The notes under the pieces are model-generated. The model was given only the letters and a program-made list of their open reading frames with translations, ran no database searches and was not told the DNA's origin. The translations under genes were made by a program, and so were the position numbers. A stretch of 44,698 bases of DNA, taken from positions 1 through 44,698 of IMG/VR virus record IMGVR_UViG_3300022407_002666. One strand, 5' to 3'. Shown here one piece after another: positions 1,711-36,946 of the stretch (positions within the stretch are counted from its first letter, which is position 1; each line of letters starts with the position of its first letter). The DNA comes from a virus. Taxonomy: Duplodnaviria > Caudoviricetes.

Positions 1711-1808
1711 TCGCCCCGGTCCCGACCGTTGGCCGACATCAGCGCCGCAGCCAAGAAGCCGAACATAAACGACAGCCAGCACAGCACCCCGATCTGCCAC
1801 CAGGTCAC
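1707..1808 (-). CDS. Small membrane peptide (33 aa)
   Basis: MTWWQIGVLCWLSFMFGFLAAALMSANGRDRGE has a single hydrophobic helix; coupled to the Cro-like gene. Confidence 0.6.
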   Translation of the reverse strand: MTWWQIGVLCWLSFMFGFLAAALMSANGRDRGE

Positions 1809-2134
1809 AGCGCGAGCTCCAACTGGCGGGCGTCCACGATCGGGAAGTCCGACACCACCGCCCTGGAGCCCAGGCACTTGGCCGCGTACTGGCACGCCCG
1901 GCAGGCCTCGCACAGGTCCGTGCGGTAGACCTTGGGCAGGCGCCCCTTGCTGAGCCGGTGCATGTCCGCGGTGGCCGCCTCGATCGCGCCTGCCCGGGAG
2001 GCGCTGGCCTCACGGTGGCCGCCGGCGTATTGGTAGAGGTTGCCGCGGGTGGTCTGGGTACGGTGCGCGAGCACCTCCTGTTCCTCTGCGGTCGCTGCGG
2101 CCATCCAGGCCTTCATCGGGGTAATGGTTTTCAT
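1805..2134 (-). CDS. Cro-like HTH regulator with C-terminal Cys cluster
   Basis: LAHRTQTTRGNLYQYAGGHREAS is HTH-like; C-terminal CEACRACQYAAKC; divergent from the repressor. Confidence 0.7.
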   Translation of the reverse strand: MKTITPMKAWMAAATAEEQEVLAHRTQTTRGNLYQYAGGHREASASRAGAIEAATADMHRLSKGRLPKVYRTDLCEACRACQYAAKCLGSRAVVSDFPIVDARQLELAL

Positions 2135-2141: not shown

Positions 2142-2193
2142 ATTTTAGCAGGCTGTAAAGGTCTTGCAGCAATAGGCTAAACCTTGCTACCCT
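2142..2193. promoter_or_regulatory. Divergent promoter/operator region (genetic switch)
   Basis: Leftward TGcTAAAAT lies 7 nt before the cro ATG. Rightward TTGCAG-N18-TACCCT (TGn-extended) lies 8 nt before the repressor ATG. Operator-like TAGCAGGCTGTA (2146-2157) and TAAACCTTGCTA (2178-2189). Confidence 0.65.
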
Positions 2194-2201
2194 GCCCGGC
2201 C

Positions 2202-2618
2202 ATGAAGTCTGTCTACGCCACCCGCCGCGATAACTTGCGCGCCCTGGTCAAGGAGTGGGGCGGGCCGACCTCCATGGCCAAGAAGCTCGGCCACACCAAC
2301 GGCAGCTACCTGGCGCAGTTGATCGGCCCCAACCCCTCGCGCGAGATCTCCGAGAAGGTCGCCCGCGAGATCGAGGGCAAGCTGGCGCTGCCCGTCGGTT
2401 GGCTCGACCAGGAGCACGACGGCCAGGGGCGCCAGGTCGACGACCAGGCCCTCGGCGAGTGCGTGCGCGCAGTGGCTGCCGCGATCCGTGACGCGGGCCT
2501 CAGACCCAACCCCGACACTTATGCGAATCTGGTTAGCTTGGCCTATGAACACACCAAACTCACTGGCCGGGTCGACGAACCCTTCATCACAAAACTCGTA
2601 AGGCTGACAGCGAAATGA
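2202..2618 (+). CDS. CI-like phage repressor (HTH; no S24 autopeptidase domain)
   Basis: MKSVYATRRDNLRALV...MAKKLGHTNGSYLAQLIG...ISEKVAREIEGKLALPVGWLDQ is a typical CI N-terminal domain; only 138 aa. Confidence 0.8.
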   Translation: MKSVYATRRDNLRALVKEWGGPTSMAKKLGHTNGSYLAQLIGPNPSREISEKVAREIEGKLALPVGWLDQEHDGQGRQVDDQALGECVRAVAAAIRDAGLRPNPDTYANLVSLAYEHTKLTGRVDEPFITKLVRLTAK

Positions 2619-10425: not shown

Positions 10426-10661
10426 AGGCCGAACGTCGACAAGCCGTGCGGGTGCTGTTGCGGGCCCACGAGGACGGCTTGTCTACGGCGGACATCGGCC
10501 GCCTGCTGGGTATTGAACAGACGGCCGTCCGCGTCGCGCTCAAGGCGATGCCTGACTGCTACATCGACCGCTGGCAGAAGCCCGCTCGTGGGCCCGTTTC
10601 CGGGGTCTGGTGCGCGGTGTATGTGCCAGACCACTGCCCGAGGCCACGCGAAAATGCGTAA
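10422..10661 (+). CDS. Small HTH-like protein (79 aa)
   Basis: GTGA-coupled; DGLSTADIGRLLGIEQTAVRVALK...YIDRW...CPRP. Confidence 0.65.
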   Translation: MKAERRQAVRVLLRAHEDGLSTADIGRLLGIEQTAVRVALKAMPDCYIDRWQKPARGPVSGVWCAVYVPDHCPRPRENA

Positions 10662-12054
10662 GCACTTCACCCCCCGCGCTTACCAGGGGATCGGCCTGGC
10701 GCACTTGGCCAACGTCGAGCGCGGCGCACTGTTCGCCGGCATGGGCACCGGCAAGACGGTCACCACCCTGACCTTCCTCGACCACCTGCACAACGTCGCG
10801 GGCGAGGACCGCCCGACCCTGGTGCTGGCGCCACTGCGGGTGGCCACCACCACCTGGCCCGAGGAGGCCCGCAAGTGGCAGCACCTGTCGGGCCTCGAGG
10901 TGGTGCCGATGGTGGGTGGCAAAGACGAGCGCGAGCGTGCCCTCAAGCGCGACGCGCCGGTCTACGTGACCAACTACGACAACCTGCTGTGGCTTCGCAT
11001 GCGGTGCGAAGAGACCGGCCTGGCCTGGCCCTTCGCCACCGTGGTGGCCGACGAGTCGACCCGGCTCAAGAACTTCAGGCTGCGCCAGGGCGGCGTGCGC
11101 GCCCAAGCGCTGGGCAAGGTGGCGCACACGGGCGTCAAGCGCTGGATCAACCTGACCGGCACGCCGGCCAGCAACGGCCTCGAGGACCTGTGGGGGCAGA
11201 CCTGGTTCTTGGACGCAGGCCAGCGCCTAGGGCGCACCTTTAGCGCCTTTCAGAACCGCTGGTTCCGCCCGGTCAAGCAGGGCCAGTTCCACCAGTGGCG
11301 CCCGGCGGAGTACGCGCAGGCCGAGATCCAGGAGCGCCTGGCTGACATCTGCCTGACGATTGACCCGAAGGATTGGTTCGACCTGAAGGACCCGATCGTC
11401 AACGTGATCGAGGTCGATATGCCAGCCAGCGCTCGCAGCAAGTACCGGGAGCTCGAGCGCGAGCTGTTCACTATGATCGAGGCCAACGAGGTCGAGGTCA
11501 CCAACGCGGCGGCGAAGTCGATCAAGCTGCTGCAGCTGGCCAACGGCGCGGTGTACCTCGACCCCGCAAGGTACGGTCCTGATGTTTGGATTGAGGTGCA
11601 CGATGCAAAAATTGAAGCTCTGGCGTCCGTGGTGGAAGAGGCTATGGGGGCGCCCATTCTGGTGGCCTACCATTTCAAGTCGGATCTCGCCCGCCTACAG
11701 CGAGCATTCCCTGAAGGTCGCCACCTGGACGCTGATCCTCAGACGATCGTGGACTGGAACGCTGGCCGGGTCCCGCTCCTATTCGCTCATCCTGCATCGG
11801 CGGGGCACGGTCTCAACCTCCAGGATGGGGGCAACATCATCTGCTACTTCGGCCAGTGGTGGGACCTCGAGCAGCACGACCAGATCCTCGAGCGGATCGG
11901 GCCGGTGAGGCAACTGCAAGCCGGGCACGAGCGCCCGGTGTTTGTGCACTACATCGTGGCGCGCGGCACGATCGACGAGCTGGTAATGGCTCGCCGAGAA
12001 TCGAAGCGTGAAGTGCAGGACCTCCTGCTTGATTATTTGAAAGGTAAAAAATGA
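10654..12054 (+). CDS. SNF2-family (SF2) helicase
   Basis: Start MRKHFTPRAYQ; GMGTGKT, VADEST, LTGTP, SAGHGLNLQ, ERIGPVRQ. Confidence 0.92.
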   Translation: MRKHFTPRAYQGIGLAHLANVERGALFAGMGTGKTVTTLTFLDHLHNVAGEDRPTLVLAPLRVATTTWPEEARKWQHLSGLEVVPMVGGKDERERALKRDAPVYVTNYDNLLWLRMRCEETGLAWPFATVVADESTRLKNFRLRQGGVRAQALGKVAHTGVKRWINLTGTPASNGLEDLWGQTWFLDAGQRLGRTFSAFQNRWFRPVKQGQFHQWRPAEYAQAEIQERLADICLTIDPKDWFDLKDPIVNVIEVDMPASARSKYRELERELFTMIEANEVEVTNAAAKSIKLLQLANGAVYLDPARYGPDVWIEVHDAKIEALASVVEEAMGAPILVAYHFKSDLARLQRAFPEGRHLDADPQTIVDWNAGRVPLLFAHPASAGHGLNLQDGGNIICYFGQWWDLEQHDQILERIGPVRQLQAGHERPVFVHYIVARGTIDELVMARRESKREVQDLLLDYLKGKK

Positions 12055-12365
12055 CGACCATTTGTAAATCGTGCGGCAAGATCGAAGGCCACTGGCCGAA
12101 CTGCGCCATCCTCGTGAACCCGCCGCTCGCCATCCCCGCCAAGGCGCCGGCGCCCACCACGCCCCTGACCAAGCAGGTCGACGGCAGCCACTACAAGGAC
12201 CTGAAAATCCAGCCGCTCGAATACATCCACGCCAACGGCATCCCCTTCGCTGAAGGGTGCGTGATCAAGTACGTGAGCCGCTGGCGCAACAAGGGCGGCA
12301 TCAAGGACCTCGAGAAGGCCAAGCACTTCCTCGAACTGCTGATCGAGCTGGAGACGCGAGCGTGA
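12051..12365 (+). CDS. DUF3310 (SaV-like / T7 gp1.7-related) protein
   Basis: QVDGSHYK...IQPLEYI...GCVIKYVSRWRNKGGIKDLEKAKHFL. Confidence 0.85.
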   Translation: MTTICKSCGKIEGHWPNCAILVNPPLAIPAKAPAPTTPLTKQVDGSHYKDLKIQPLEYIHANGIPFAEGCVIKYVSRWRNKGGIKDLEKAKHFLELLIELETRA

Positions 12366-12550
12366 GCGACAACCTCGACATCGCCAGCGACCGCGAGGAG
12401 CTCGCCCGCAACATGGCGATCAACCTCAAACGCCCCGCCGGACCCGCCGCCACCGGGCGCTGCCTGCACTGCGATGAGATCGTGGGCGACACTCAGCGCT
12501 GGTGCGATGCGGACTGCCGCGATCACTGGGAGAAATACCGTGGCCGCTGA
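12362..12550 (+). CDS. TraR/DksA-like C4 zinc-finger protein (62 aa)
   Basis: GTG start; MSDNLDIASDREE (DxxDxA-like), CLHC...WCDADC. Confidence 0.7.
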   Translation: MSDNLDIASDREELARNMAINLKRPAGPAATGRCLHCDEIVGDTQRWCDADCRDHWEKYRGR

Positions 12551-12551
12551 T

Positions 12552-12734
12552 ATGCAGTTCATCGCCGAGCTGCCCGCCGGCTACGACGAGCGCACGCGCC
12601 TGGCGCTGCGCGACGACAACCAGGTGATCGTCACGCACCCCGAGCACCCTGCCCTGGTGCTCGGTGCCGACGGTAAGTGGCTTGAAATTCTGAGCGGGGT
12701 TGTGCATCCTGCACATAGTTCTAGCACCTGCTAG
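12552..12734 (+). CDS. Hypothetical protein (60 aa)
   Basis: MQFIAELPAGYDERTRL...; GC3-rich codons; follows the previous stop directly. Confidence 0.55.
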   Translation: MQFIAELPAGYDERTRLALRDDNQVIVTHPEHPALVLGADGKWLEILSGVVHPAHSSSTC

Positions 12735-12736
12735 AA
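12719..12736. promoter_or_regulatory. Operator palindrome TTCTAGCACCTGCTAGAA
   Basis: Best-symmetry member of the TAGCAnnTGCTA family; about 50 bp left of the dif-like site. Confidence 0.65.
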
Positions 12737-12786
12737 CGACGCAGAGCGCGATGTCCCCCTAGCGCTTTGGTGGCTTTACAAATTTG

Positions 12787-12814
12787 TAAGGTCACAATAT
12801 ACATTATGCGTCCC
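12787..12814 (-). other. dif-like XerCD recombination site (putative attP)
   Basis: Minus strand GGGACGCATAA-TGTATA-TTGTGACCTTA versus E. coli dif GGTGCGCATAA-TGTATA-TTATGTTAAAT: XerC arm 9/11, spacer 6/6, XerD arm 4/11. Confidence 0.8.
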
Positions 12815-12824
12815 AGAACGGGGG

Positions 12825-12854
12825 TTGACGGTTGAGCATTTGCTAAAGGATACT
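12825..12854 (+). promoter_or_regulatory. Promoter of the XafT-like gene, with operator GAGCATTTGCTA (12834-12845) in the spacer
   Basis: TTGACG-N18-GATACT; the ATG lies 7 nt downstream with no RBS (probably leaderless). Confidence 0.65.
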
Positions 12855-12861
12855 GTCGCAC

Positions 12862-13269
12862 ATGCTTGAGATTAACGCCCGCCCCGGTCGCCACCTGCGC
12901 CAACTCATCGAGCTGATCGGCGAGCCGCGGCTGCTGCGCGAGCTCGACATCCACCGCACCACGCTGCGCCGCTGGCTGAAGGAGGAGATCAAGATCCCCG
13001 GCCACCAGCACCAGGTGATCCGCCTGCTGCTCGGCGACCTGCCGGGCACCGCCGGCCAGTGGAGCGGCTGGCGCTTCGACCAGGGGCTGCTGACCGCCCC
13101 GGGCGGTGACCGCTACCGGCCCGGCGACGTGCTCTCGCTCATCATCCTGCGCCAGCAGCTGACCGCCCAGCGCCGCGAGCTCGAGGCGCTCAAGGTCCGG
13201 CTCGCCATCAGCGAGGAAGCGCTCGAGCGGCTGGCGCCGGCGGCCAATGAGTCCAGGGCCTGGGGCTAG
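12862..13269 (+). CDS. HTH + DUF3653-like protein; XafT-like Xer recombination activation factor candidate
   Basis: N-terminal HTH LLRELDIHRTTLRRWLK...IP; DUF3653-like GDLPG...WSGWRFDQGLLTAPGGDRYRPGDV; C-terminal coiled coil; adjacent to the dif-like site. Confidence 0.72.
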   Translation: MLEINARPGRHLRQLIELIGEPRLLRELDIHRTTLRRWLKEEIKIPGHQHQVIRLLLGDLPGTAGQWSGWRFDQGLLTAPGGDRYRPGDVLSLIILRQQLTAQRRELEALKVRLAISEEALERLAPAANESRAWG

Positions 13270-14858
13270 GCCGCGATCGCGCCGAAGGTCTTCCAGGTGC
13301 CGGGCGTGCCCGCCGTGGTGCACACCACCCCGATCGTGCCGCCCGCTGCGGGCGTGCCGTAGACCCGATCCCCCACCGCCCAGGTGCCGGACGCCGGGGT
13401 GCCACCGAACGCCTCGATGCGGGCCTGCGCGAGCGACCAGGTGCCGGTCAGCGGGCGCAACGCACACACGCCCGCCGAGGTGAAGCGGTTGCTGTCGATC
13501 ACGCAGGTGCTGCCGATCGTGGCAAACACGTACTTGCCGAAGCAGTGGTTGCCGTTGAAGGCGACGTCCGTCCAGGTCGCAAAGTACAGCGTGTCGGTGA
13601 AGGCCGAGCCCGAGTAGAACTGGTTGCCCGAGATCGTGCTGTACTGCAGGTTCTCGATCGCCACCGACTTGTAGGCGGCGCCCACGTTCTCGCCGTCGAT
13701 CACGTTGCCCGTGATGGAGGACAGCTGGGCGTGGTTGACCTTGAGCTGCGGCTCGGCGCAGGTGGGGCGGCCAAAGACGTTGTTGTTGGCCAGTGTCAGG
13801 TACAGCAGCGGCACGCCGCCCGTCCCCGTGATCTCGAGCCCAACGTTGCAGTTGTTAAGCAGGTTGCCGGTGACCGCGACCTTGTTCATCGGGGTGCCGA
13901 CCGTGGCACTGCCTGCGGAGATCAAGATGCCGCAGCAGCCGTTGCCGTTGGTCGAGTGGCTCACCGTGTTGCCGGTGACGCTCACGTTGCTCACGCCGTA
14001 GACGGTCTCGCCCGAGGTGGTGTACACACCGATGCCCTTCAGCGTGCACTCGGCGATCGTGTTGTGGGCGATCAGGATGTTGCTCGAGCCACTCAGGTTG
14101 TTGGGGGAGTTGCGCACGTTGACGCCGAACTCCCCGTAGTAGGAGAAGTGGTTGCCGACGACGCGCACGTTCTTACCGGAGTGGATCGACACCGCGTCGT
14201 AGTAGCTGGCCGGGCTCGAGGTGCTGCCGACCAGGGTGTTGCCGCTGATCTCGATGTCCTCACCATCCGCCGTGATGCCAGAGTAGTTGCCCAGGCCCGA
14301 GCAGTTGTGGATCTTGACCCCACTGACCTGGCGCGTGGCGGTGCCCGCGCTCGTGCGCTGCAGGATGTAGATGGCGCAGGCCGTGCCCACGAAATGGCAG
14401 CGCTCGATCGAGACGTTGGTGACGCTGTTGGCGGCCGTGTCGGGGGCGACCTGCAGCATGATGCCCGCGCCCAACTCCTGGCCACCGCCCGGTGCGGTCT
14501 GGGAGATGCGCACGCCCGTGAAGCGCAGGTTGGACACGGGGAGTGCGGTCTGGTCGACGCCGAACACCGCCGCAAACAACGTGCTGCCGGTGACGGCGGA
14601 GGCCGTCATCGACGCCCCCGCCTCAAACTCGACCGCGGTGTTGCTGGGTAGCGCAAAGAGGGAGCTGTACGCGCTGAGGCCCGCGGGGAACACCACCTGG
14701 TAGCTGCCCCGGGGGAAGTAGACCGTGCCGCCCCCGGCAGCCTTGACGGTGGCGATCGCCGCCTGGATCGCGGCGGTGTCGTTGGCGGTGCCATTCCCCA
14801 CGGCCCCGTGGGTCTTGACGCTGATCAATCGTTGCTGGTTCTCTTGCGCATTACTCAT
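13266..14858 (-). CDS. Tailspike/depolymerase (pectate-lyase-like right-handed beta-helix) lacking an N-terminal virion anchor
   Basis: Begins ISVKTHGAVGNGTANDTAAIQAAI...GGGTVYFPRGSY; repeated I(S/T)GN beta-helix turns; C-terminal VCTTAGTPGTW. Confidence 0.8.
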   Translation of the reverse strand: MSNAQENQQRLISVKTHGAVGNGTANDTAAIQAAIATVKAAGGGTVYFPRGSYQVVFPAGLSAYSSLFALPSNTAVEFEAGASMTASAVTGSTLFAAVFGVDQTALPVSNLRFTGVRISQTAPGGGQELGAGIMLQVAPDTAANSVTNVSIERCHFVGTACAIYILQRTSAGTATRQVSGVKIHNCSGLGNYSGITADGEDIEISGNTLVGSTSSPASYYDAVSIHSGKNVRVVGNHFSYYGEFGVNVRNSPNNLSGSSNILIAHNTIAECTLKGIGVYTTSGETVYGVSNVSVTGNTVSHSTNGNGCCGILISAGSATVGTPMNKVAVTGNLLNNCNVGLEITGTGGVPLLYLTLANNNVFGRPTCAEPQLKVNHAQLSSITGNVIDGENVGAAYKSVAIENLQYSTISGNQFYSGSAFTDTLYFATWTDVAFNGNHCFGKYVFATIGSTCVIDSNRFTSAGVCALRPLTGTWSLAQARIEAFGGTPASGTWAVGDRVYGTPAAGGTIGVVCTTAGTPGTWKTFGAIAA

Positions 14859-16048: not shown

Positions 16049-16306
16049 TTACTCGGCGGCTCTCGCCTCGATCTCGTAGGGGTTGTTGCGGTAGCCATAT
16101 CGTAGTAGCCAGTAGCTGTACTTGATCAGGTACACCAGCTTGCCGTCGCGCTGCATCTGCTCAAGGTGCTTGCGCTCGTGGCGGATCAAAGCAGCGTGTT
16201 GCTCGTAGCCGGGGGCAAGGTAGATGCTGCCCCAGAAGCTAGTCCAGCCGTGGAAGCCGCAGAGGCGCATGTACCAAAGGATTAGGCCGGTGGCGGTGTG
16301 GGTCAT
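16049..16306 (-). CDS. Small zincin-like HExxH protein (DUF4157-like, 85 aa)
   Basis: LIRHERKHLEQ...NPYEIEAR; TAATG coupling to the tail fibre stop. Confidence 0.65.
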   Translation of the reverse strand: MTHTATGLILWYMRLCGFHGWTSFWGSIYLAPGYEQHAALIRHERKHLEQMQRDGKLVYLIKYSYWLLRYGYRNNPYEIEARAAE

Positions 16307-18822
16307 TACAGATTGCCCTCTGACACCCAAGTGCCGGGATTACCAGCAACTGTACACACCCATCCTTTTGGTTGACCAACAGCAGGCGCTGAGTTTTTGA
16401 CAACCGTACCGGCAGTCCAGTAGATAGCCGCACCGGGGACGTTTGCTCCATAAACCCCGTAGAGATATTCTTTGATGTTTAGCATGGCCCTCAAATCACC
16501 TACATCGCGGCCCGGCGTACACCCGACACCGCCCAAAGTGATTGTTCTGCCGTTTGGAATCACAATGTCAAAGACATATGGGCTACCGGCAGCGAGGTAG
16601 TTTTGCGTAAACTCAATCAACACACGAGTCCACGCGGTGCTAATAGTCTTGTTTAAATTGAATCCGTAATCGCTTGCGCGTGTTGTGGAGAACTGCACGT
16701 TTGATTCCACATCCATCTTGCACCACACCCACAAAGAATACTTCTTCTGGACGTTGTTGGTGTCCACCGTATTTACTCGGATGTAATTGTTGGCCGCAGT
16801 AGCGATGACAGATGTTGCGTTATTCGCAATGCCGTTTTCGTCCGTACTCGTCATGTAGGTCGGCGTTGCGTTAGCGTAGGTGAAATACGCTCCTGCGTTC
16901 ACGTAGCGCGACCAAGTCATCATGTTATTTTTTAGGTCGGTCGGCGGTTCCGAGTAGTCAATGGAATTGAAATTGCCCCGGTTGATGTTCCCAAAATCAA
17001 AAGGCAAGAAGACATTTGGCCCAATCTGATTCTTCCCATTGGCCCCTGTCGTGATCTCCGTCGAAGCAGGATCGAATAGTTTGCAGTAGTCTAGGCCGTT
17101 GTTCTGGATGACGCAGCCTTGCAACTGAATTCCAACGAGTTTGATAAAACCGCCGACTGTCGGTCCTTCAAATCCAACGGTCGGATTGTCGCAAATCTGC
17201 AAATTGGTTACCGGGTTCGCGCCGGTGATTAAAATCGGGTTCCCAGCAATGCGCCCTTCCGAGCCGAATTTGTTACCTATAATTCTGCTATACGAACCAG
17301 TAACCGCTGTTGTTGTGTCAATGCAGATATTGACCGGGGTTGCAGCCAAGTTGCCGACAAACGTATTCCGGTAGATTGTGGCGACGTTTGCGCCGTTTGT
17401 CAGGTGGATGTCGTATCCACTGTTATAGATAAAGACACACCGTTCAATATTCAGCCCGTCAGAAGCCTGCCCATTGTTCCAAACGCCCTTGGCGTTGCCG
17501 CTGAATCGACACTGAGCCACATCAACACTGAACCCAAAGTTTCCGAGCTTGATTGAAGCAGTGGTCTGGTTAATGAAGTTGCACTTGTAAAACGCTGCAG
17601 GCATTGCGTCTGCGTTAATACCGATGTCTGCCGCAATCGCCCCACCTACAAAGTCGATGTATTCAAATACCACGCCTGACTTGTCAGACGATCCAATATA
17701 GTTCCACAAAAGTGCTGTTACGCCATCGTCAATGTTTAGCCGCGCAGGGCCACGGACAATAATCTTAGATTTGGTGATGTTGATGCTTGCCCCAATGCGA
17801 CGCGCCAGTGCGCTGGCGGCAAGAAGCAAACTCCCACCGCCAACAATAGCGTTGCCACCTGTTCCGGTAATTGCGGCAAGGCTAGGTGCTGGTGCAGCAG
17901 TGATTGCCGCTTCAGTGTCAGTTGTTTCGTTAGTGCCGCTATTAACGGCAGATGAATCTGGCACCACACCAAAATCAGCATCACTCACACTCTCCCGCAG
18001 CTTGGTCTGCACAGTCGTAGCCACGGCTCCGGTACCGGCTGGGGTGTAGCTCACGTCGTTCGCGTCCGCGCTGACGCCGACCAGCGCCTGGCCGTAGCGC
18101 ACCAAGATCTCGGCGCCGTTGCTAGGCGCAACAGTAAACACGGCGTTGCCCGCGGTCAGCACGAAGTCGACGCCGGGCACCTGGGTGAAGCCATCAATGG
18201 CCACATCCATGTTGCCGAGCACCGCGGGGTCGGTATCGAGCGCGAACTGCGTGGTCGAGCCGTTGCCGGTGAAGGTGTTGAACCGGTAGGTGGCAAACGA
18301 GATGGCGGTGGCGATGTCTTCCAGCGGGTAGTTCTGCATCGCCGTGGCGGCGGTGTTCCAGCCCAGCAAGGCGTTGGCCTCGGGGGCGGGGAGCAGCGGA
18401 GACGCGCTCGAGGTGACAGGCACCTGCACGGCCCGGCTGGCCACCTCCTCCACCTGCTGCACTTGCATCGTCAACCGGTCGAGCTCGTTCTCCAGCGCCA
18501 GCGGTGAGAAGTTGCCACCCGACGGCAAGTCAAGCGGCTGGTCGTAGGGGAGGTTGCCGATGATGGTGAGCTTGCCGCTGACGGGCAGCGCGCTGCCGCT
18601 CAGGGGGTAGGTGACGGTGCCGCCGGGGCTGGTCTCCTGGTTCGCGTTCAGCGCCACCGAGTAGTCGGTGTTGATCACCCGCACGGTCTCAACGCCGAGG
18701 CTGTCGGCCGTGGTCACCAGGATGTCGGTGGTGGCGAACACCTTGAAGGTGAAGGGCCAGGTGGTTTGTGCGCCGGTACCGAGCAACGGCCCGGCCTTAC
18801 GCGTCGTGGATGGGATCGTCAT
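16306..18822 (-). CDS. Tail fibre/tailspike: T7-gp17-like N-terminal anchor + beta-helix receptor-binding domain
   Basis: N-terminal GTGAQTTWPFTFKVF...LENELDRLTMQVQQ; FTGNGSTTQF domain; GAVATTVQTKLRESVS junction; C-terminal GWVCTVAGNPGTW. Confidence 0.85.
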   Translation of the reverse strand: MTIPSTTRKAGPLLGTGAQTTWPFTFKVFATTDILVTTADSLGVETVRVINTDYSVALNANQETSPGGTVTYPLSGSALPVSGKLTIIGNLPYDQPLDLPSGGNFSPLALENELDRLTMQVQQVEEVASRAVQVPVTSSASPLLPAPEANALLGWNTAATAMQNYPLEDIATAISFATYRFNTFTGNGSTTQFALDTDPAVLGNMDVAIDGFTQVPGVDFVLTAGNAVFTVAPSNGAEILVRYGQALVGVSADANDVSYTPAGTGAVATTVQTKLRESVSDADFGVVPDSSAVNSGTNETTDTEAAITAAPAPSLAAITGTGGNAIVGGGSLLLAASALARRIGASINITKSKIIVRGPARLNIDDGVTALLWNYIGSSDKSGVVFEYIDFVGGAIAADIGINADAMPAAFYKCNFINQTTASIKLGNFGFSVDVAQCRFSGNAKGVWNNGQASDGLNIERCVFIYNSGYDIHLTNGANVATIYRNTFVGNLAATPVNICIDTTTAVTGSYSRIIGNKFGSEGRIAGNPILITGANPVTNLQICDNPTVGFEGPTVGGFIKLVGIQLQGCVIQNNGLDYCKLFDPASTEITTGANGKNQIGPNVFLPFDFGNINRGNFNSIDYSEPPTDLKNNMMTWSRYVNAGAYFTYANATPTYMTSTDENGIANNATSVIATAANNYIRVNTVDTNNVQKKYSLWVWCKMDVESNVQFSTTRASDYGFNLNKTISTAWTRVLIEFTQNYLAAGSPYVFDIVIPNGRTITLGGVGCTPGRDVGDLRAMLNIKEYLYGVYGANVPGAAIYWTAGTVVKNSAPAVGQPKGWVCTVAGNPGTWVSEGNL

Positions 18823-18880: not shown

Positions 18881-21800
18881 CTACTTGCTGGCGGGGCTGG
18901 CGGTGCCGCTGACCAGGCCACGTGCCAGGTCGAGCGCGTCGGTCGGCTCCACCTTGCCCTGCTCCACCCCGGCCAGGTAGCCGAGCGGTCGGGCCACTGC
19001 GAACGCAGGCAGCCCGGTCACGATGCTGACCGCACTCGCCACATCCCGCACCGCCTTCTGCCGGTTGCCGTCGTCGGCGATCGCCTTGTAGACCGAGAAC
19101 GGGGCGCTGACGGTGGACTCGATCAGCGACACCGCCGGTGACAGCGAGAACTTGTCGTCGGCCGGGTTGTCGTTGAAGCGGTTGACGGTGAGCTGGGCCG
19201 CCTGCCCCAGGAACGGCACCATCGCGAAGGCGCCCTTGATCGTGCCCATGCCGAACACCGCCATCAGCCAGTCATCCAGGTAGCCGTCCTTGTCCTCGTC
19301 CTCTGGGCCGCCACGCATCGCGTGAGCGATCGCCTCCGCCACCCAGATCGGCGCCAGCATGCCGAGCGTGATGATGCCGAGCGCCTTGCCCGCGCCCTTC
19401 TTGAGGCCCATCTCGCGCGAGACCTGCAGCAGCGCGGTGCCGTTGGTGTTGGCCAGCATGTTGAAGTAGCCGATGAACTGGGTGAACAGGCGGGCCCAGG
19501 CCGGGCCGGTCTCAAGCCGGCTCACGTCCTCCGGCAGGGTCGAGCCCTGGGTGGTGCGGATCACGCTGTCGGCGTGGCGCACCGCATCGCGGTCGCTGTC
19601 GCCCCGGGTGATCGCGTCGTTGTAGGCGGCGGTCCAGATGATCGGCTCCATGGTGTTGGCCATGGCGGTCTGCAGGAAGTAGGCGTGCTTTTGCGTCCAG
19701 GCCTGGCTCTTCTCGTAGAGGCCGGGGTCGAGCAGGATCGCGTCCATCGCGTCGTTGATCGCGGCGATCTCGTTCTCCATGCGGTTGGCCATGAAGCTGC
19801 TGGCGTCTGCCACCGCCTTGGCGGTTTGCTTAGGCGAGGCGATGAACGTCGCCGTGGCCCGCATCATGCTGGCGGGCTTGACCTTGATCGCCGCCACGCT
19901 GAAGCCGGTGATCTGCTGCAGGGTGTTGCTGACGTTGGCGAACATCAGCGCCATGCCGGCGCGACCGCGGGCTGCGCTCATCACCCGCGAGATGCCGCCG
20001 TCGCCCACGATCGGGGTCTCCACCACCTGGCGGGCGCTGCGGCTCAACCAGGGGGTCAGCATGCCGGCGTAGATGGTGGGGTCGATGCGCCCGAGCGAGT
20101 AGCTCACGCCCTTGCGCGAGAGCAACTTCTGCACGTCACGCACGGCGGGCTCCATGTGCGAGAACAGCAGCACCTTGTCGATGTGCTGGCCGATGGTGCG
20201 CAGGTCCAGCATCAGTGGGCGGTTGTACTCGACACGGCCCTTGGTAAAGCCCTTGTTGGTGCCGGGGAATGAGAAGCTCATGTTCTCGTTCTCGGCTTCA
20301 GCCAGCTTGCGCAGGTCGACGTCCTGCACGATGCGCGGGTCGGCCTGGGCTGGCACGTAGCCGCCGGTGTAGCTGCCGAACGGTGTGTCGAAGCTGTCGG
20401 CGGTGACCTCGGCAAAGTAGCGGCCAAACACGTCGCGGTGGGTCTTCTGCGCCAGTGGCTTGGTCTGCTCCAGCAGATCCCACACGCCCTGGGCGAAGTC
20501 GTAGTGAGCCTTGGTCAGCACGCCGGTGTCGTGCATGCGCTGCAAGAACGCATCCCAGCGGCCGGTGTTCAGGGTGCCGTCGGCGTTCTCAGTAGCCCAG
20601 CCACGGCCCAGCAGCAGCTTGCGCTTGTTCGATGCGTTGCCGGTGTGCAGGATCGCGTGCAGCAGCTCGGCGTGGCCGATGCCGTTGTGGCCCTCGCCGA
20701 AGGTGTAGTTGAGCTCAGGGGCCACGATCAGGCCCTTGGTGAGGGTAGGCGCCACGTTGTCGATCAGCGCCTGGTAGCGCTTGCGGTAGACCACCCGGTC
20801 GGCGCGGTAGGCGTTGGCGGCGTCCTTCACTGGCTGGAACACCAGCTTGGTGAACTCCGAGCCCATGCCTTGGGCCCACTGCTCCACCCGGCGCAGGATC
20901 GAGCCCACGAACTGCAGCTTGCGGGCGAGCTCCTCGCGCGGAGTCACCGCGCCGGTATCGCCTGGCATCTCGGTGGGCACACCAAGCACCTGCATGCGGG
21001 CTTGCAGCTCGGCCTCGGCGTCGTCCATGTCCATCAAGTTGCCGTCGATCTCCATCTGGCGCGAGCGCTTGGCCAGGTGCCACATGGCCTGGATCTCCTC
21101 GTGCAGGCCGCGCAGCTCCTCCATGGTGAGCGCGTCCAGGGGTTGTGCCATGTTGAGCGCGCCCTGCATGCTCGGCTGCAGCGCGGCGTACATGGCGGGG
21201 TCGTTCTTCTCGACCAGGGCCATGTACTCGAGCGCCGTCTTAGCGCCCTTGGGGGCGACCCCGTAGGCGCCCAGGATGGCGCGGGCGGCGTTGACCACGT
21301 CCGGGTCGCGCCCCTTCTTGACCACCTTCTCGTTGTTGTCGCCGATCACGCGCTTGAAGAACTCGAGGATCTTGCGCATCTCGAGCTGGGCGTCCACCGC
21401 CGCCTTGGCCGCGGCGTTGTTGAGCATCTGGTCTTGCTTGGCTTTGACGGCCTCCTGGGTCTCGCCCTTGGCGGTGGCCTCCTGCCAGCGCTTGCCAGCG
21501 CGGCGCTCGGCGGCGGTGTGCTGCCAGGCCTTCGCCTTCAGGTCGCGCAGCGGGGTGCGGGCGATCACATTCGCCGCGAACTGCTTAGCCGCCTCCATCA
21601 GAGCGTTGATTGTGATCTTGCTGCCCTTGGCGGTGACCTGGCCGGTGTCGGTGCGCGGGTTCAGCATCTCGGCCTGGCTGCGCAGCTCGGTGGCCAGGGA
21701 CCGGGCGCGGGCCTCGTTGTGCACGGCCTCGTTCGCGGCCTGCTCAATGGCACGCTGATCGACCAGGTCGCCGTACTGCTCGAGCATGCGCTGGTCGGTC

Positions 21801-24800
21801 ATGCCCTCGATGACGTCGGACTTCTTGCCGGCGGCGTCGATCGCCTGCAGCATGGTGTTGGCGTCGGGGTAGCCGTAGCTGTCGGCGATGATGGCCAGCT
21901 CGGTGTCGTTGAGCTGCTCCTTGTTCTCCTTGCGCATGGTGGCCAGCATTTCCTTGGCCTGGAACTCCGGCATCGCGTTCACCTCAAGGGTGACCTCGGC
22001 CTCCACCTCCTTGCGCTGCTCGGCAGCCTGTTTCTGGAGTTTCTTGATCTCGCGCGCTCGTGCGTTCACGGTCCACTTCAGATCGCGCAGGCTGCGCGCG
22101 GTGAGCTTCTCGTTGGCCTCAGCGTCGGCCTCCTCGTTCGGCAGCAGACCCGCGACCTCGTTGGCTTGCTGGATCTGCTCCTCGCTCGCGAGCATGCGGT
22201 CGAACACCTGGCGCACTTCGTCGGAGAGCACGATGCCGCTGTCGGGTTTGCCAGCGATGAACGCCTGCAGGCTCTTGTAGACGTTCAGCATCCAAGCGCG
22301 GAACTTGCGGAACAGCGGCTGCAGCTCAAGGCTGGGGGCCTTGCCCTCCATCAGGTACTGCTCAAAGCTCTCGGCAAAGCGCTCGTGGTAGGGGCGCTTC
22401 TGGTCCAGGGTGTAGCTGTTCCAGGTGGCGAGATCCGCCACGCCGAACCACTTGACCAGCGCCGCCATGTCGGTGGCGATGTCCGCCGGCGCACCGGGCT
22501 GGCTCGCCAGGTCCGCCATCACCTCGAGGAAGAAGTGGCCGGTCTCGTGCAGGAAGGTGGAGAGGTCGGCGTTCTCGTTGAGCGCCAGCTCCAGGTTCTT
22601 CGGGCTGAAGGTGCCGCGGGGGCCTTGGTTTAAGGTTTCGGTGTCGGGGCGCTGCGCATCCCCACCGACAGGCGTGTCGGTTCCGCCATCGGGTTGTCCG
22701 CCCGCGGTTTCTCGAGCTTGGCGATCTGCGCTTTCAAGCCCTGCACGAACGGGTTGTCCGCTCCACTGCGGGCCTCCGACTTCGCCAGCTGTTCCTTCAG
22801 CATTTCCAGTTGCGATGGCATCGAGTTTCTCCTGGTACTGGTGGCTAAACGCCACCTGGGTGTCGTGCCAGAACTGACCGGCAAATGCGACGCCGTCGAC
22901 AGTGGCCAGCACGCGCTCGGCGAGTGCTGCCATCTCGTCGGCTTTCGCGTTGATTTTAGCAGCAAGTGCTGCATCGTCCAACCCGCTCAGGTTGTCAAAA
23001 CCATACCGCTGGTCGAACTCGGGCACGTACTGCAGGCGCACGCCCACGGCCGGCGGCATCTCGCCTGCAACCGCACCCGGCATGCGCCGACCATCGACGA
23101 TGACCGTTAGGAACTCGACGCCTTCCTTGGCCAAGTCGGCCAAGACGGCCTCAAGCTGCGCGGCCTGCGCCGCCTCGCGCAAGTAGATCTCGACGCCCGG
23201 CCGGTGTCGCAGCGGGTCGACGTTTTCCCCGTCGCGCAGCACGCGTGACAGGAACGTGGAGTCCTGCCGTGCCTCTTGTGCTTGGCGCAGCATCTCGGCC
23301 CACAGCGCGGTGGGGTCGTACCCTTCGCGCGCCACCACCTCCATGTCGAGCGAGCGCTCGATGCCGCCGTAGCGGCCCTGGGTCGACAGCATTTTCGAGG
23401 CCAGGACTTGGGTGTTCCCGTCGCCCTCGTAGGCGGCCAGGCGGATCTGCTCGGCCAGTCGGGCCATATCCGCGTCGGTGGGGACATAGTCGATGCCCTG
23501 GGTGTCGAGTGACATCTGGGTGGACAGACCGCCCACGAACCGGTCGACCGTGCGCTCGAGTGTGGCGAGCTCGGCGCGGGCGGCTGCCTTGGCATCCGGT
23601 TTGCTCTTGCTCGAGTCGATGACGCGGCGCAGTTCTTTGATGCGCGCCTGGTCGGCATTGCCCGTGAGGCTGGCCTCGAGCTCGAACGAGCCGCCCTCGC
23701 CCGCCGCGCTCGTCCAGTTGTTGACGGTCCAGAGTTCTTTTTCAATGAACCAGACCACGGCCTGCAGGTCGTCGTCGTTTACCTCGGCCAGGACCTTGTC
23801 GGTCTTGAGCTCGTCATCGGCGCGGATGCGTTTTGACGCTTCGGTGAAAATGTCCTGGCCCATGCCGAACTGCAACGTGGTCGTGCCGTCCTCGCGCATG
23901 GCGCCCGACACGCCGGTCTCCGCCATGCTCGGGATGCGCAGGCCGCCCGCCAGGCGCTGCAACATGCGCGCAGCCCAGACGTCGATCGTCGCCCGGGTGC
24001 GGAACCCGATCAGGTTGCCGCTGAAGTTCAGGGCCTTGGGCGCGGTGTCGCCTCGGCCAATGTCCGCGTCGGCGTTCTTGACCACGCGCCACAGGTCGAC
24101 CATCGCGCGGGCGACGTTCTTGCCGTTGAACCCGTACTTCCTGCCCGATTCCTTGGTGGGCAGAAACGAGTCGTCGAGCACGCGCGCGGTTTTCAGCGCG
24201 GCGATTTTGCTTTGGTACTCGGGCAGCCTCTTGATGGCCGCCTTGCTGTATGGGGCCGCTGCCTTGTCGGCCGTTTCAACAGCTTGCTTGAGCGCAGCGT
24301 ATTCTTCGCTCTCCTTGGCCTGAGCTGGAGTCTGGTCCCGGTCCTTTGCGGTTGCGAGAAACTCGTCGCGAGCGGCACGGGCGGCCTTGTACTCGGCAAT
24401 AAACGGCTCGCCCTCGGTCAGGCGTTCGTTGAACCAGCCACGCAGGTCGAGCTCGAGCGCGTCAACCGTGTCGGCCCATTCCACCCATTTGGGCAGCAGT
24501 GTGTCGTAGTCGCCGCGGCTTGCACGGCGCAGCGTGTCGACCGCGTTGGTCCAGTTGTCACGCACGGGCGTGTTGGGACTGGTGGCACCGAGCAGATCCG
24601 CGAACAGGTCGCCCAGTCCACCGAACTCCTGACGCAGGCGGGCGCGCATGGCCTTGTACCAGCCGGCCTGGGCCAGGATGTTCTTGGCGTTCTGGTCCCC
24701 GTTGGCCGCGCGCTGAAACACCCGGCGGACTTCATCGACCATCGCCTTGGCGGTGGCCTTTACCCGCTTCTTGTAGGCGGGCGAGTCCGTGTCAATCTGC

Positions 24801-27490
24801 TTGCCGTCTGCGTCCGAGCTGAACGAGTACGGGACGTTCTGGTAGTTGTAGACAACCTTGCTCTTGCCTTTGTCGTCGACCTCAATCTTGGCGCTGACGA
24901 AGGTGAGCGGTGCCCAGCCTTGGGTTGTGGGGTGCGCCAGCTTGTGGCCGCGCACGGTGTTGGTGATCTCTTTCTCGGACACGCCAATCTTTTCGGCCGA
25001 GTCTTTGACCGCCTGCTTCTCCTCGGCGGTAAACCTTGCGCGCGTACCTAAGACACGAGTGCCTCGTTCGGCCACTGATGTCAGGTTGTTCACCTTGGCG
25101 TCGGCCTGGTTCAGCACCTCCGACTTCTTGCGCGCCTGCAGCTCGCGCCCTTCAATGCGCAGGTCGTAGTCGGCCCACGAGGCGTTGCCCTGCATGCGCT
25201 CGAGCTTGGCCTGCAGCATGGCGGGCTCACCGCTCGCCTGGGTCTGCCACTGCGGTTCGGTGCGCGCAAGCGGGGCCACGCGCTGGCCGCTCTCGATGCG
25301 ACTTTGCGCACCGAGCAGTTCTGGGGTGAACGTCTGTTCGCCCAGCATGATGACCTGGCCGGGCTGCGTGCCGTCCATGCGGTTGGCGTAGCCTTTGTAG
25401 CCCAGATCCAAGAGCTTGGACTCAAGGTCGCGTGCGTTGCCGGTCTTGAGTTTGAGCGGATCGGCGTCGGCGTCGTAAACACCCGTCAGTTGCACGCGGT
25501 GCGCACGTCCGCCAACACCGCTCTCGGGTCGAATGCCGGTGCCCTTGTCGAAGTAGAACGACAGGCGCTGCTTCAAGCGCTGGTCGGGGTTGTTCAGGAT
25601 CTCATCGCGTGCGCTGCCCTTGAGCCCGGTGCCGTACATCGCGGTGGAAAGCGTCGGCCGGTCGACCATGCTGAAGTGGTAACCCTCGACAGTGAGCTCG
25701 CCCTCGAGGCCGCCAGTGTTCAGCACAGCGCCCTGCCCGCTCTGGCCAGTGATGCGCAGCGGGTACTTGGCCTGCATCTGCTCGGGGGTCATGCCGGTGC
25801 GCCCGGCCAGGGTGGTGTAGAACGCGGCGGTCCAGGTGGCGTAACCCTCGTTCACGTCCTTGCGGAACCGACCCACGGTGTTGAGTTGGTCGAGCACGCC
25901 CTGCTTCACGCGGTCGCTCGAGGCCTGCATGGCCTGCTGGTCGCTGGCCTGCTGGATCACGCGCTGCGCTTCCTGCGCCAGGAACTCCTGCGCCTGGGTG
26001 CCAGCCGCCTTGGCCTCGACCTGGCTCATCGCCATCGGGTCGCCGATGCGTGCGTTCTCGACCAGCATGGCCTCGAGCGGGGTGCCGGGCGCGAGCGTGA
26101 GCACGTCCCCCATCGGGATGGCAACCGCTGCGTTGGCGGCAAGCGCTTCGGGGATGGCGTCGCGCACGGCCTGTGGCAGTTGGTTGAACACCTCGGGCGC
26201 CAGCTGGTTGAGCACCTCGGCGTCGACGTAGATCTCCTTGGGCGCGCCGTCGGTGTTGTTGGCCATCGACTGCACTAGGTTGCGGAACTCCTCGGGGTTG
26301 CGCTCGCGCAGCAGCGCCTGGCTGGCCAGGTCGAACTGGGCTTTGAGTTGCGTCGAGTCGCGCTCGGCCTGCTGGCCGTCGCGCACTTCCTGGGCGCCAC
26401 GGGTGCGCACGCCGAGCGCAGCGCGCACGATCGCGGCCGAGGTGCCCGCCACACTTGCCTCGTAGAGTGAGCCGTCGCCGATGGTGGCGTCAGGGTTGGT
26501 GAGCAGCTTGCGGACTACGTCCTGCAGCACGCCCTCGGTGATTTCCTGGGTGGCCTCGATACCGCCCGCCACCAGCTTGTCGGCGATCCAGCGCAGGGCG
26601 CTGTTCTTGATCGCAGGCGGCACCCGGTTCAGCAGCGCGTCGATGCCGTACTTTTCGGTGAGCGCGGTGATGCTGGCGCCAGTGAGAACCGCCGTGTCGC
26701 GCATCGCCTGGGAAGCCCTATCGCCCTTGGTCTTGTCGGCCATCACGTCGGCGCCCTGCGAGAACAGGGTGGCCAGCGAGGCGGTGCCGCCGGTGGCGAT
26801 CTGCACGCCGATCTGCTGCATCAGTTGGCCGATGCCCCCCGCCACGTCGGTGGCGAAGTTCTGGGCCTCCTTGTCGGGGCCGATGGCGTCGGCCAGCATC
26901 TTCCAGCCAGAGCCGGCGAACTTGAGCGAACCGGCTACGTCCAGCGCGATGCCAGGGTCGGCGCCGGTCAGGTCGCGCACCGCGCGCGAGACGGCGGTCA
27001 AGCCGATGTTGCGGGCACCGATGTCGATGATCTCGCCGGAGCCGGCCAGGAAGCCGCCCACGCCACGCGCGGCACCTGCGGGCACGGCGCGCACGACATT
27101 GAACGTCTGCTCCAGGGCGCTCAGGTTGTCGGTGTGGTCGTGGACCTGGCTGGTGAAGGTGGGGTCCAGCAGCTGACGCGTCAGCACGGGGGAGTCCTGC
27201 GCCAGGCGCGCCAGGTCCAGCATGCGCGCCTGCTCGCGGCGCTTGGCTTCGGTGAAGTTGCGGTCAATAACGGAGAACGGCAGCCCCGTGGTGCGCGTCA
27301 ACTTCTGCGTCTCTGCAGCCTGGTCGGGGTTCACGGCCAGCGCTTTTTCAAAAATGGTGCGAGTACGTTGCTGGCGTTCGCCGGCCATCTCCCCGACGAC
27401 AGCGTCGTAAGGGTTGGTGGTCATGGTGACGGGTGCGCGGTTGTTGTCCTTTTGCCAGGAAGCGACAACGTCGTCATAGGGGTTTGCCAT
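18881..27490 (-). CDS. Giant internal virion/ejection protein, polyvalent (2869 aa)
   Basis: Last of the internal virion genes; LPD22-like N-terminus; ART-like module (YHFS...GYKGY); glycosylase-like module (GWY...ATSP...N, TIDVWAAR, QAVVW); zincin motif ADLSTFLHETGH. Confidence 0.82.
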   Translation of the reverse strand: MANPYDDVVASWQKDNNRAPVTMTTNPYDAVVGEMAGERQQRTRTIFEKALAVNPDQAAETQKLTRTTGLPFSVIDRNFTEAKRREQARMLDLARLAQDSPVLTRQLLDPTFTSQVHDHTDNLSALEQTFNVVRAVPAGAARGVGGFLAGSGEIIDIGARNIGLTAVSRAVRDLTGADPGIALDVAGSLKFAGSGWKMLADAIGPDKEAQNFATDVAGGIGQLMQQIGVQIATGGTASLATLFSQGADVMADKTKGDRASQAMRDTAVLTGASITALTEKYGIDALLNRVPPAIKNSALRWIADKLVAGGIEATQEITEGVLQDVVRKLLTNPDATIGDGSLYEASVAGTSAAIVRAALGVRTRGAQEVRDGQQAERDSTQLKAQFDLASQALLRERNPEEFRNLVQSMANNTDGAPKEIYVDAEVLNQLAPEVFNQLPQAVRDAIPEALAANAAVAIPMGDVLTLAPGTPLEAMLVENARIGDPMAMSQVEAKAAGTQAQEFLAQEAQRVIQQASDQQAMQASSDRVKQGVLDQLNTVGRFRKDVNEGYATWTAAFYTTLAGRTGMTPEQMQAKYPLRITGQSGQGAVLNTGGLEGELTVEGYHFSMVDRPTLSTAMYGTGLKGSARDEILNNPDQRLKQRLSFYFDKGTGIRPESGVGGRAHRVQLTGVYDADADPLKLKTGNARDLESKLLDLGYKGYANRMDGTQPGQVIMLGEQTFTPELLGAQSRIESGQRVAPLARTEPQWQTQASGEPAMLQAKLERMQGNASWADYDLRIEGRELQARKKSEVLNQADAKVNNLTSVAERGTRVLGTRARFTAEEKQAVKDSAEKIGVSEKEITNTVRGHKLAHPTTQGWAPLTFVSAKIEVDDKGKSKVVYNYQNVPYSFSSDADGKQIDTDSPAYKKRVKATAKAMVDEVRRVFQRAANGDQNAKNILAQAGWYKAMRARLRQEFGGLGDLFADLLGATSPNTPVRDNWTNAVDTLRRASRGDYDTLLPKWVEWADTVDALELDLRGWFNERLTEGEPFIAEYKAARAARDEFLATAKDRDQTPAQAKESEEYAALKQAVETADKAAAPYSKAAIKRLPEYQSKIAALKTARVLDDSFLPTKESGRKYGFNGKNVARAMVDLWRVVKNADADIGRGDTAPKALNFSGNLIGFRTRATIDVWAARMLQRLAGGLRIPSMAETGVSGAMREDGTTTLQFGMGQDIFTEASKRIRADDELKTDKVLAEVNDDDLQAVVWFIEKELWTVNNWTSAAGEGGSFELEASLTGNADQARIKELRRVIDSSKSKPDAKAAARAELATLERTVDRFVGGLSTQMSLDTQGIDYVPTDADMARLAEQIRLAAYEGDGNTQVLASKMLSTQGRYGGIERSLDMEVVAREGYDPTALWAEMLRQAQEARQDSTFLSRVLRDGENVDPLRHRPGVEIYLREAAQAAQLEAVLADLAKEGVEFLTVIVDGRRMPGAVAGEMPPAVGVRLQYVPEFDQRYGFDNLSGLDDAALAAKINAKADEMAALAERVLATVDGVAFAGQFWHDTQVAFSHQYQEKLDAIATGNAEGTAGEVGGPQWSGQPVRAGLESADRQARETAGGQPDGGTDTPVGGDAQRPDTETLNQGPRGTFSPKNLELALNENADLSTFLHETGHFFLEVMADLASQPGAPADIATDMAALVKWFGVADLATWNSYTLDQKRPYHERFAESFEQYLMEGKAPSLELQPLFRKFRAWMLNVYKSLQAFIAGKPDSGIVLSDEVRQVFDRMLASEEQIQQANEVAGLLPNEEADAEANEKLTARSLRDLKWTVNARAREIKKLQKQAAEQRKEVEAEVTLEVNAMPEFQAKEMLATMRKENKEQLNDTELAIIADSYGYPDANTMLQAIDAAGKKSDVIEGMTDQRMLEQYGDLVDQRAIEQAANEAVHNEARARSLATELRSQAEMLNPRTDTGQVTAKGSKITINALMEAAKQFAANVIARTPLRDLKAKAWQHTAAERRAGKRWQEATAKGETQEAVKAKQDQMLNNAAAKAAVDAQLEMRKILEFFKRVIGDNNEKVVKKGRDPDVVNAARAILGAYGVAPKGAKTALEYMALVEKNDPAMYAALQPSMQGALNMAQPLDALTMEELRGLHEEIQAMWHLAKRSRQMEIDGNLMDMDDAEAELQARMQVLGVPTEMPGDTGAVTPREELARKLQFVGSILRRVEQWAQGMGSEFTKLVFQPVKDAANAYRADRVVYRKRYQALIDNVAPTLTKGLIVAPELNYTFGEGHNGIGHAELLHAILHTGNASNKRKLLLGRGWATENADGTLNTGRWDAFLQRMHDTGVLTKAHYDFAQGVWDLLEQTKPLAQKTHRDVFGRYFAEVTADSFDTPFGSYTGGYVPAQADPRIVQDVDLRKLAEAENENMSFSFPGTNKGFTKGRVEYNRPLMLDLRTIGQHIDKVLLFSHMEPAVRDVQKLLSRKGVSYSLGRIDPTIYAGMLTPWLSRSARQVVETPIVGDGGISRVMSAARGRAGMALMFANVSNTLQQITGFSVAAIKVKPASMMRATATFIASPKQTAKAVADASSFMANRMENEIAAINDAMDAILLDPGLYEKSQAWTQKHAYFLQTAMANTMEPIIWTAAYNDAITRGDSDRDAVRHADSVIRTTQGSTLPEDVSRLETGPAWARLFTQFIGYFNMLANTNGTALLQVSREMGLKKGAGKALGIITLGMLAPIWVAEAIAHAMRGGPEDEDKDGYLDDWLMAVFGMGTIKGAFAMVPFLGQAAQLTVNRFNDNPADDKFSLSPAVSLIESTVSAPFSVYKAIADDGNRQKAVRDVASAVSIVTGLPAFAVARPLGYLAGVEQGKVEPTDALDLARGLVSGTASPASK
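22630..22821 (-). CDS. Nested +1-frame small protein (63 aa) inside the giant ejection gene
   Basis: RBS AGGAGA 6 nt before ATG 22821; MPSQLEMLKEQLAKSEARSGADNPFVQGLKAQIAKLEK...; hand count of GC3 is 50/63 in this frame versus 30/63 in the host frame. Confidence 0.65.
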   Translation of the reverse strand: MPSQLEMLKEQLAKSEARSGADNPFVQGLKAQIAKLEKPRADNPMAEPTRLSVGMRSAPTPKP

Positions 27491-34766: not shown

Positions 34767-34769
34767 GGG

Positions 34770-34934: not shown

Positions 34935-34935
34935 G

Positions 34936-36123: not shown

Positions 36124-36124
36124 G

Positions 36125-36568: not shown

Positions 36569-36577
36569 GGTCGACTT

Positions 36578-36937: not shown

Positions 36938-36946
36938 GCCTGCCGA

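Follow-up and report, generated by a model that had tools for sequence, protein, structure and literature searches.

How might a tailed phage that carries a repressor and no integrase of its own establish lysogeny? The question is raised by a viral genome of 44,698 nucleotides (the whole stretch analysed, hereafter the window), in which a dif-like site lies beside a gene whose product resembles an activator of the bacterial recombinases XerC and XerD. We regard it as likely that the window represents a temperate BPP-1-like tailed phage without an integrase, which integrates at the host dif site through host XerC/XerD activated by the product of this gene, termed here Xaf (putative Xer activation factor).

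The Phage and Its Probable Host

The two ends of the record share a 128-bp overlap with 126 identical positions, from which it follows that the window is a complete circle, with a length of 44,570 bp. Profile scans of its ORFs revealed the capsid, connector, tail, polymerase, helicase and terminase genes of a BPP-1/BcepC6B-like podophage, and the hallmarks of these temperate podoviruses that were looked for, namely a GP7-type capsid, a head-tail connector, a two-arm layout and CI, were all found. The capsid protein is 74%, 72.5% and 60.5% identical to those of Burkholderia phage KL4, BcepC6B and BPP-1, respectively, in keeping with the BPP-1-like podophage of ~44.6 kb recognised in the initial annotation, and the phage encodes its own polymerase and primase-helicase. 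The capsid match, together with a homologue carrying the label Rubrivivax MAG, suggests a host in the Burkholderiales. The sequence was traced mainly to lake and freshwater metagenomes (24 runs from 21 studies), with more than half of its words in just one, which is possibly the source. The genes that frame the locus and its regulation are as follows:

1805 to 2134, minus strand: divergent ORF in the Cro position
2184 to 2618, plus strand: CI-like repressor (PHROG repressor families, E 6e-15)
10654 to 12054, plus strand: SNF2-type helicase, last large early-arm gene, marking the integrase slot (synteny with BcepC6B gp28-gp25)
13266 to 14858, minus strand: tail-spike-like beta-helix gene that ends the late arm, convergent on xaf (ORF profile scans)
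37663 to 38658, minus strand: major capsid protein, BPP-1/BcepC6B type (PF20911)

Of the CI/Cro switch that had been proposed, the CI half is supported by the repressor match, whereas the Cro label derives from position alone, ORF 1805-2134 having no Pfam match.

The window contains a second tail-spike-like beta-helix gene (16306-18822) besides that at 13266-14858, located in a low-GC stretch (50-53% vs ~65%) that suggests recent exchange. The stretch 18881-27490 encodes a 2869-aa virion-module protein with an LPD22 domain, while 33912-37180 holds extra unannotated genes between the capsid and tail modules, which are not on the BcepC6B map and are likely structural. Two ORFs of this region (34939-36219 and 33915-34766) were considered as recombinases and rejected, since neither resembles one; the former clusters with unnamed viral proteins.

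The dif-Like Site and the xaf Gene

The locus is constituted by two principal elements:

12787 to 12814, minus strand: dif-like site of 28 bp, putative attP (XerC arm 12814-12804, spacer 12803-12798, degenerate XerD arm 12797-12787)
12862 to 13269, plus strand: HTH + DUF3653 gene of 135 aa, putative Xer activation factor gene xaf (Pfam, family profile vs XafV, structure model)

Read on the minus strand (12814-12787), the site is GGGACGCATAA-TGTATA-TTGTGACCTTA, and E. coli dif, taken from the real chromosome, is GGTGCGCATAA-TGTATA-TTATGTTAAAT. Against this reference, which may not equal the dif of the host, the XerC arm matches at 9 of 11 positions, the spacer at 6 of 6 and the XerD arm at 4 of 11, so that both the coordinates and the match counts first reported for the site were reproduced. 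In the window, the shared 13-mer has a single exact occurrence, against a chance expectation of 0.08 even if two mismatches are allowed, and it is also single in the 4.9-Mb E. coli chromosome, where it is located opposite dnaA. The locus displays three marks of a TLC-type IMEX: an 11-6-11 dif-like attP of 28 bp with a dif-identical spacer (E. coli dif as reference), a conserved XerC arm combined with a degenerate XerD arm, and the absence of an own recombinase. A CTX-type folded attP was rejected, the XerC arm and spacer having no second inverted copy in the window; across 58 related sites, pairing between the XerD arm and its outer flank is slightly above that of controls (6.9 vs 5.6 of 11).

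The start of xaf lies 48 bp away from the outer XerC-arm end. Its product scored 24.5 bits against Pfam DUF3653 (cut-off 22.4), and its AlphaFold2 model (pLDDT 89.5) predicts helices bundled at the N-terminus, a beta-hairpin containing WSGWRF and a long helix at the C-terminus. Fold searches with the model matched the HTH part alone, weakly, to XRE-type domains, and a PDB fold search returned no match at E<=0.001; model and fold matches together point to an N-terminal HTH fused to DUF3653. Among 59 family members, 48 matched DUF3653 at E<=0.01 and a minority matched HTH families of Pfam, the window Xaf not being one of them. The family profile aligned to XafV (VGJphi ORF136) over 72 columns (93%, E 3.3e-7), and XafV is a demonstrated Xer activator according to the available text of bioRxiv 10.64898/2026.06.12.731946. 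The pTLC record gave no DUF3653 match. Both the HTH + WxGWRF gene noted earlier at this distance from the site and its suspected DUF3653 similarity are thereby substantiated, and the protein is designated a putative Xer activator. DUF3653 proteins are not always Xer activators: PSB15, which has this domain and no HTH, binds a packaging signal, and integration does not require it, in the accessible part of bioRxiv 2024.03.19.585677.

A Site-Gene Pair in the Integrase Slot

The site and the gene form a pair that is conserved in its anatomy among relatives and is mutually exclusive with integrases. No integrase was found among the 52 scanned ORFs of the window, and six-frame searches for PF00589, PF00239 and PF13614 gave no match, which upholds the earlier statement that tyrosine and serine integrases are lacking; of the parA/parB genes also said to be lacking, ParA was sought in the six-frame search and ParB in the ORF scans alone. 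In records carrying the gene or the site, PF00589 was found in 0/19, 0/36 and 0/12 (0/67 in total), 15 of which are at least 90% complete, and all 15 encode a tailed-phage capsid. PF00239 was present in 0/19 records, and the ParA partition ATPase that would mark a plasmid prophage in 0/20.

A control set was drawn from helicase-related loci, of which 37 of 43 were taken (six short or near-self fragments were excluded) and 36 records scored. An integrase occurs in 16 of these 36, xaf in one (L150) and both in none, and the 16 integrase-bearing records contain neither the gene nor the 13-bp core of the site. L150 itself lacks an integrase and possesses two dif-like sites; elsewhere among the controls, the core was found as one 11/13 occurrence in L160, which has neither integrase nor gene. 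In BcepC6B the integrase follows the helicase at the arm junction, and it is this place that the dif-like site and xaf occupy in the window. L160 is a complete 45.5-kb relative with one dif-like site (10975-11002) at the arm junction beside a small uncharacterised ORF, which is a candidate for a different activator.

Conservation of the Site-Gene Pair

Homologue searches yielded 322 close homologues and 828 cluster representatives. The core (at least 11/13) lies within 4 kb upstream of the gene, in the same orientation, in 43 of 47 viral loci, at 48-49 bp in 21 of the 43, and nowhere else in 662 kb; the remaining four retain the XerC arm with an altered spacer. A broader alignment added 15 loci, of which all nine with E<=1e-20 show the core at a distance of 44-137 bp on the upstream side of the gene, while the core was not found in the other six, namely three ~11-kb elements (L221-L223) and three weak HTH matches. 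Many loci are near-duplicates or kin, so these counts are not independent. The core persists where protein identity falls to ~47%, and a clade further removed has it too. Site and gene are paired in these relatives, and no integrase was found in the records with the gene. A broad alignment (A2) was discarded for locus searches as too variable.

The inner XerC arm is conserved in 19-21 of 21 at each position. A canonical XerD arm is found in 0/38 distinct arms, the best reaching 7/11, and in all 38 either position 1 is T or position 5 is G. The T1 and G5 classes are those that XafT integrates efficiently, according to the available text of PMC9226527. Since T1 and G5 are also canonical dif positions, the rule shows continued use of XerD and not use of XafT as such.

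Some loci deviate from this arrangement. L044 and L045 harbor two to three XerC-arm sites with differing spacers per phage, 146-1144 bp upstream of the gene, which may target other dif types or belong to a separate cassette family. An HNH-like ORF (motif recognised by eye) is situated between site and xaf in L015 (5316-5831) and L021 (3278-3766), both of which have sites with altered spacers, and is possibly a homing endonuclease insertion.

Promoter, Operator-Like Palindromes and a Proposed Mechanism

The site is surrounded by the following signals, one of which recurs at the switch region:

2144 to 2159, no strand: operator-like palindrome in the CI/Cro gap (11/14)
12702 to 12714, no strand: GTGCA-n3-TGCAC palindrome, unique in the window
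12720 to 12735, no strand: operator-like palindrome beside the site (12/14)
12775 to 12790, no strand: degenerate operator-like palindrome that covers the outermost 4 bp of the XerD arm (9/14 as judged by eye, below the scan cut-off)
12825 to 12854, plus strand: sigma-70-like promoter, predicted to transcribe xaf and pointing away from the XerC arm (one match against 0.1 expected; conserved in relatives)
12832 to 12847, no strand: operator-like palindrome inside the xaf promoter (13/14 to TTTAGCA-nn-TGCTAAA)

At a threshold of at least 11/14, TTTAGCA-nn-TGCTAAA occurs seven times in the window against 0-1 in 15 simulated genomes, four of the seven being at 2842, 3992, 8653 and 28992. The copies are found in the CI/Cro gap, upstream of early genes, next to the site and within the xaf promoter. 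The likeliest ligand is CI, the HTH of Xaf itself being the alternative. On the XerD side, a flank of ~90 bp is conserved, in which the GTGCA-n3-TGCAC palindrome keeps a fixed distance of 83-85 bp from the spacer in most phage-type sites. These palindromes, the XerD-side element and the cassette arrays described below extend beyond the initial annotation.

A mechanism can be proposed in which Xaf would be produced after infection from the promoter beside the XerC arm and would activate XerCD without FtsK, with the crossover taking place in the shared TGTATA spacer. One junction would then combine the host XerC arm with the degenerate phage XerD arm, and the other would combine the phage XerC arm with the host XerD arm, thereby restoring a working dif. 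The degenerate arm would prevent excision of the prophage by FtsK-driven recombination, and the repressor would hold excision off until induction by occupying the operator of the xaf promoter and perhaps also that on the XerD arm. By the same reaction, small cassettes in circular form, which carry dif-like sites of their own, are probably inserted into the phage attP.

Cassette Arrays in Relatives

Arrays of two to three direct-repeat sites, spaced 0.6-1.4 kb apart, were found in ten distinct relatives (L002, L014, L023, L027, L043, L049, L050, L054, L074 and L095). A cassette unit comprises an XerC arm, a promoter-like stretch with an operator, one to three ORFs and a conserved tail of ~140 bp with a cassette-type XerD arm at its end. 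In 10/10 arrays, the phage-type XerD flank belongs to the site most distant from xaf (61-96% identical to the window, against a background of 40-55%); the flanks of the inner sites are of cassette type, switch at the spacer and form at least two families (66-94% and 80-89% within-family identity). The window comes close to being the empty form of L049, to which it is 96% identical over 200 bp left of the site. Such an order is the outcome expected from insertion of circles into attP at the spacer, and the flank pattern suggests that the site really recombines. At the XerC-side junction, where the cassette and phage sides are alike, homologous recombination may also have acted. Excised circles were not observed.

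Sixteen cargo ORFs were scanned, and the seven Pfam matches comprise four DNA methyltransferases, one Mom, one 3'-5' exonuclease and one Vut_1 transporter. The AKAA with which several cargo ORFs terminate is part of a shared motif, and ORFs may be swapped by short-homology recombination as well. The commonest cassette site was present in eight viral contigs, all within such arrays. The arrays work like cassette arrays and are not integrons, for no PF00589 integrase (IntI) was found in the array-bearing records searched. With about even odds, these relatives form a widespread freshwater tailed-phage lineage that has swapped its integrase for an Xer activator and uses XerCD both for lysogeny at dif and for an integrase-free integron-like system, in which repressor-controlled DNA-modification (anti-restriction-like) cassettes circulate between phages and stack in attP. 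In L074, ~1370 bp past the first site and after two cassettes, the xaf position holds an N-terminal piece only, without the DUF3653 part; L009 (4050-4739) has a Mom-family gene between site and xaf, behind the same promoter and without a second dif-like site.

Search for Integrated Copies and Alternative Explanations

No integrated copy was detected in five pattern or protein scans of collections that have few members and consist mostly of free-phage contigs. The hybrid attR pattern had 0 matches in viral and metagenome contigs. The attP/attL pattern gave 28 viral matches, 23 on contigs known from the gene and five new, each of the five with a phage-type XerC side, and 19 metagenome matches, of which 18 were phage-type, including the window's own sequence; all but one of these matches were uncut phage sites. 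The exception, L079, was discounted as a fortuitous match at the end of a contig, next to a collagen-like gene, and one of 58 candidate stretches in species-representative genomes (24 residues, weak, from an actinobacterial MAG without the 13-mer) was likewise rejected. GenBank phages and plasmids gave no match, and among the contig ends listed, contigs of four runs aligned to 11500-14500 had no joint at the site; a soil contig ending at 12797, the spacer edge, was accorded no evidential weight, there being 98 further loose ends. Records with the gene or site were classed as provirus in 0/67 cases, compared with 1/16 integrase-bearing controls, and two homologues lie on large contigs, P0285 (68.8 kb) and P0347 (567 kb). 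The initial interpretation is partly supported: three kinds of observation that could have told against it, on the protein, on integrases and on conservation of the site, did not arise, and the proposed lysogeny at the terminus via XerCD has no integrated copy from these scans to its credit.

That a real Xer site serves another use, such as multimer resolution, support of an unintegrated prophage or cassette capture only, is unlikely, even though it would agree with the failure to find attL/attR, with the phage's own polymerase and primase-helicase, and with the resemblance of the ~90-bp flank and its fixed-distance palindrome to the plasmid Xer accessory sequences described in available portions of PMC6744903. 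Such a use is difficult to reconcile with the absence of ParA from the records searched and with a module that sits in the integrase slot and excludes integrases, and the missing junctions lose force in data composed mostly of free-phage contigs, where even the integrase-bearing controls are rarely proviruses. Plasmid resolution sites, moreover, tend to retain the XerD arm, whereas here it is the XerD arm that is degenerate, as in the attP of TLC and of the gonococcal island in the descriptions available.

Integration by XerCD at dif with the DUF3653 protein acting as a DNA-binding regulator rather than an activator is quite unlikely. The precedent of PSB15, a DNA-binding assembly factor in the accessible text of bioRxiv 2024.03.19.585677, the N-terminal HTH and the palindromes around the site as possible targets speak for it; against it stand the homology to XafV, the HTH-DUF3653 fusion as in XafT/XafV, which PSB15 lacks in the same text, and the nature of a dsDNA terminase phage without an ssDNA packaging signal, together with TLC assays in which, as far as the available text of PMC9226527 goes, equally degenerate XerD arms required XafT. 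It is highly improbable that the phage is now lytic and that its site and gene are relics or match by chance: free-phage contigs alone were observed, as this would predict, yet the core has been kept over the protein divergence described above and in the distant clade, the repressor is intact with its seven operator-like sites, and cassette junctions fall at the site.

Relation to Known Xer-Dependent Systems

The nearest counterpart of the proposed Xaf-activated integration at dif is the TLCphi satellite of Vibrio cholerae with XafT. In the available text of PMC6744903 and PMC9226527, it shares with the window a good XerC arm, a matching spacer, a degenerate XerD arm and an HTH+DUF3653 gene on the XerC side, and the D arms follow the T1-or-G5 rule; it is, however, a ~4.7-kb rolling-circle satellite of filamentous phages for which integration has been shown, whereas the window represents a head-tail phage of 44.6 kb that encodes polymerase, terminase and CI and is known from sequence alone. 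XafV/ORF136 of VGJphi has in common with Xaf the homology of the HTH end and the WxGWRF hairpin, as well as a gene adjoining attP, but VGJphi is a filamentous ssDNA phage, and XafV, which boosts XerC-initiated reactions in the accessible account, does not thereby assign a pathway to the window Xaf. The Vibrio dif-type double-jelly-roll prophages (PMC12715192) and phiCAH24 (bioRxiv 10.64898/2026.02.19.706829) are, in the portions available, dsDNA and lytic-capable, with a repressor, an XafT-like gene and a dif-like attP replacing the integrase, and they have int-type sisters. They differ in being non-tailed, ~10 kb and found integrated, with the repressor beside attP, which in the window is 10 kb away from it. 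BcepC6B and BPP-1 share the two-arm gene order and the capsid type, but in BcepC6B the slot is taken by a site-specific integrase, and the xaf profile has no match there.

Like Acinetobacter pdif modules and integron arrays, the arrays of the relatives stack small accessory genes, flanked by recombination sites, in a single place. They differ from both, in the pdif orientation and integron anatomy commonly described, in forming direct repeats inside a phage attP, in having their own promoter and operator per cassette and in lacking a dedicated integrase. The pdif sites are Xer targets in the available text of PMC10057898.

Xer hijacking is already known for filamentous, micro- and tailless phages, satellites and islands, and the accessible text of PMC6744903, PMC9226527, PMC12715192, PMC11630473, PMC10057898 and preprints names filamentous, satellite, tailless and island cases, while tailed phages in the searched papers use their own enzymes. 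No report of a tailed phage using XerCD at dif was found in this literature, which is mostly open-access and covered by titles and abstract openings; the 250 genome matches mentioned in available parts of PMC6744903 could include unrecognised tailed prophages. If the reading is true, integrase-less tailed phages with a repressor are not lytic or plasmid-like by default, lifestyle predictors require a dif/Xaf rule, 40-kb prophages are able to occupy the terminus, and the cassette arrays represent a phage-borne, Xer-run route of gene capture. As the spacer equals that of E. coli dif, the integration claim is testable in E. coli, and the family offers natural XerD-arm variants and Xaf proteins by the dozen for studies of FtsK-independent Xer activation.

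The Module in Other Genetic Contexts

In L193 and L211, the site and gene lie behind a different replication module (Cas4-like exonuclease, Sak4 and another helicase), from which it follows that the module moves between phage backbones. An xaf-family gene is also harbored by five ~11-kb elements with a P2-like nicking replication protein (L190, L198 and L221-L223), four of which have terminal repeats; L221-L223 are circular and lack the core, and L190 and L198 carry dif-like sites. These elements are possibly tailless phages or satellites.
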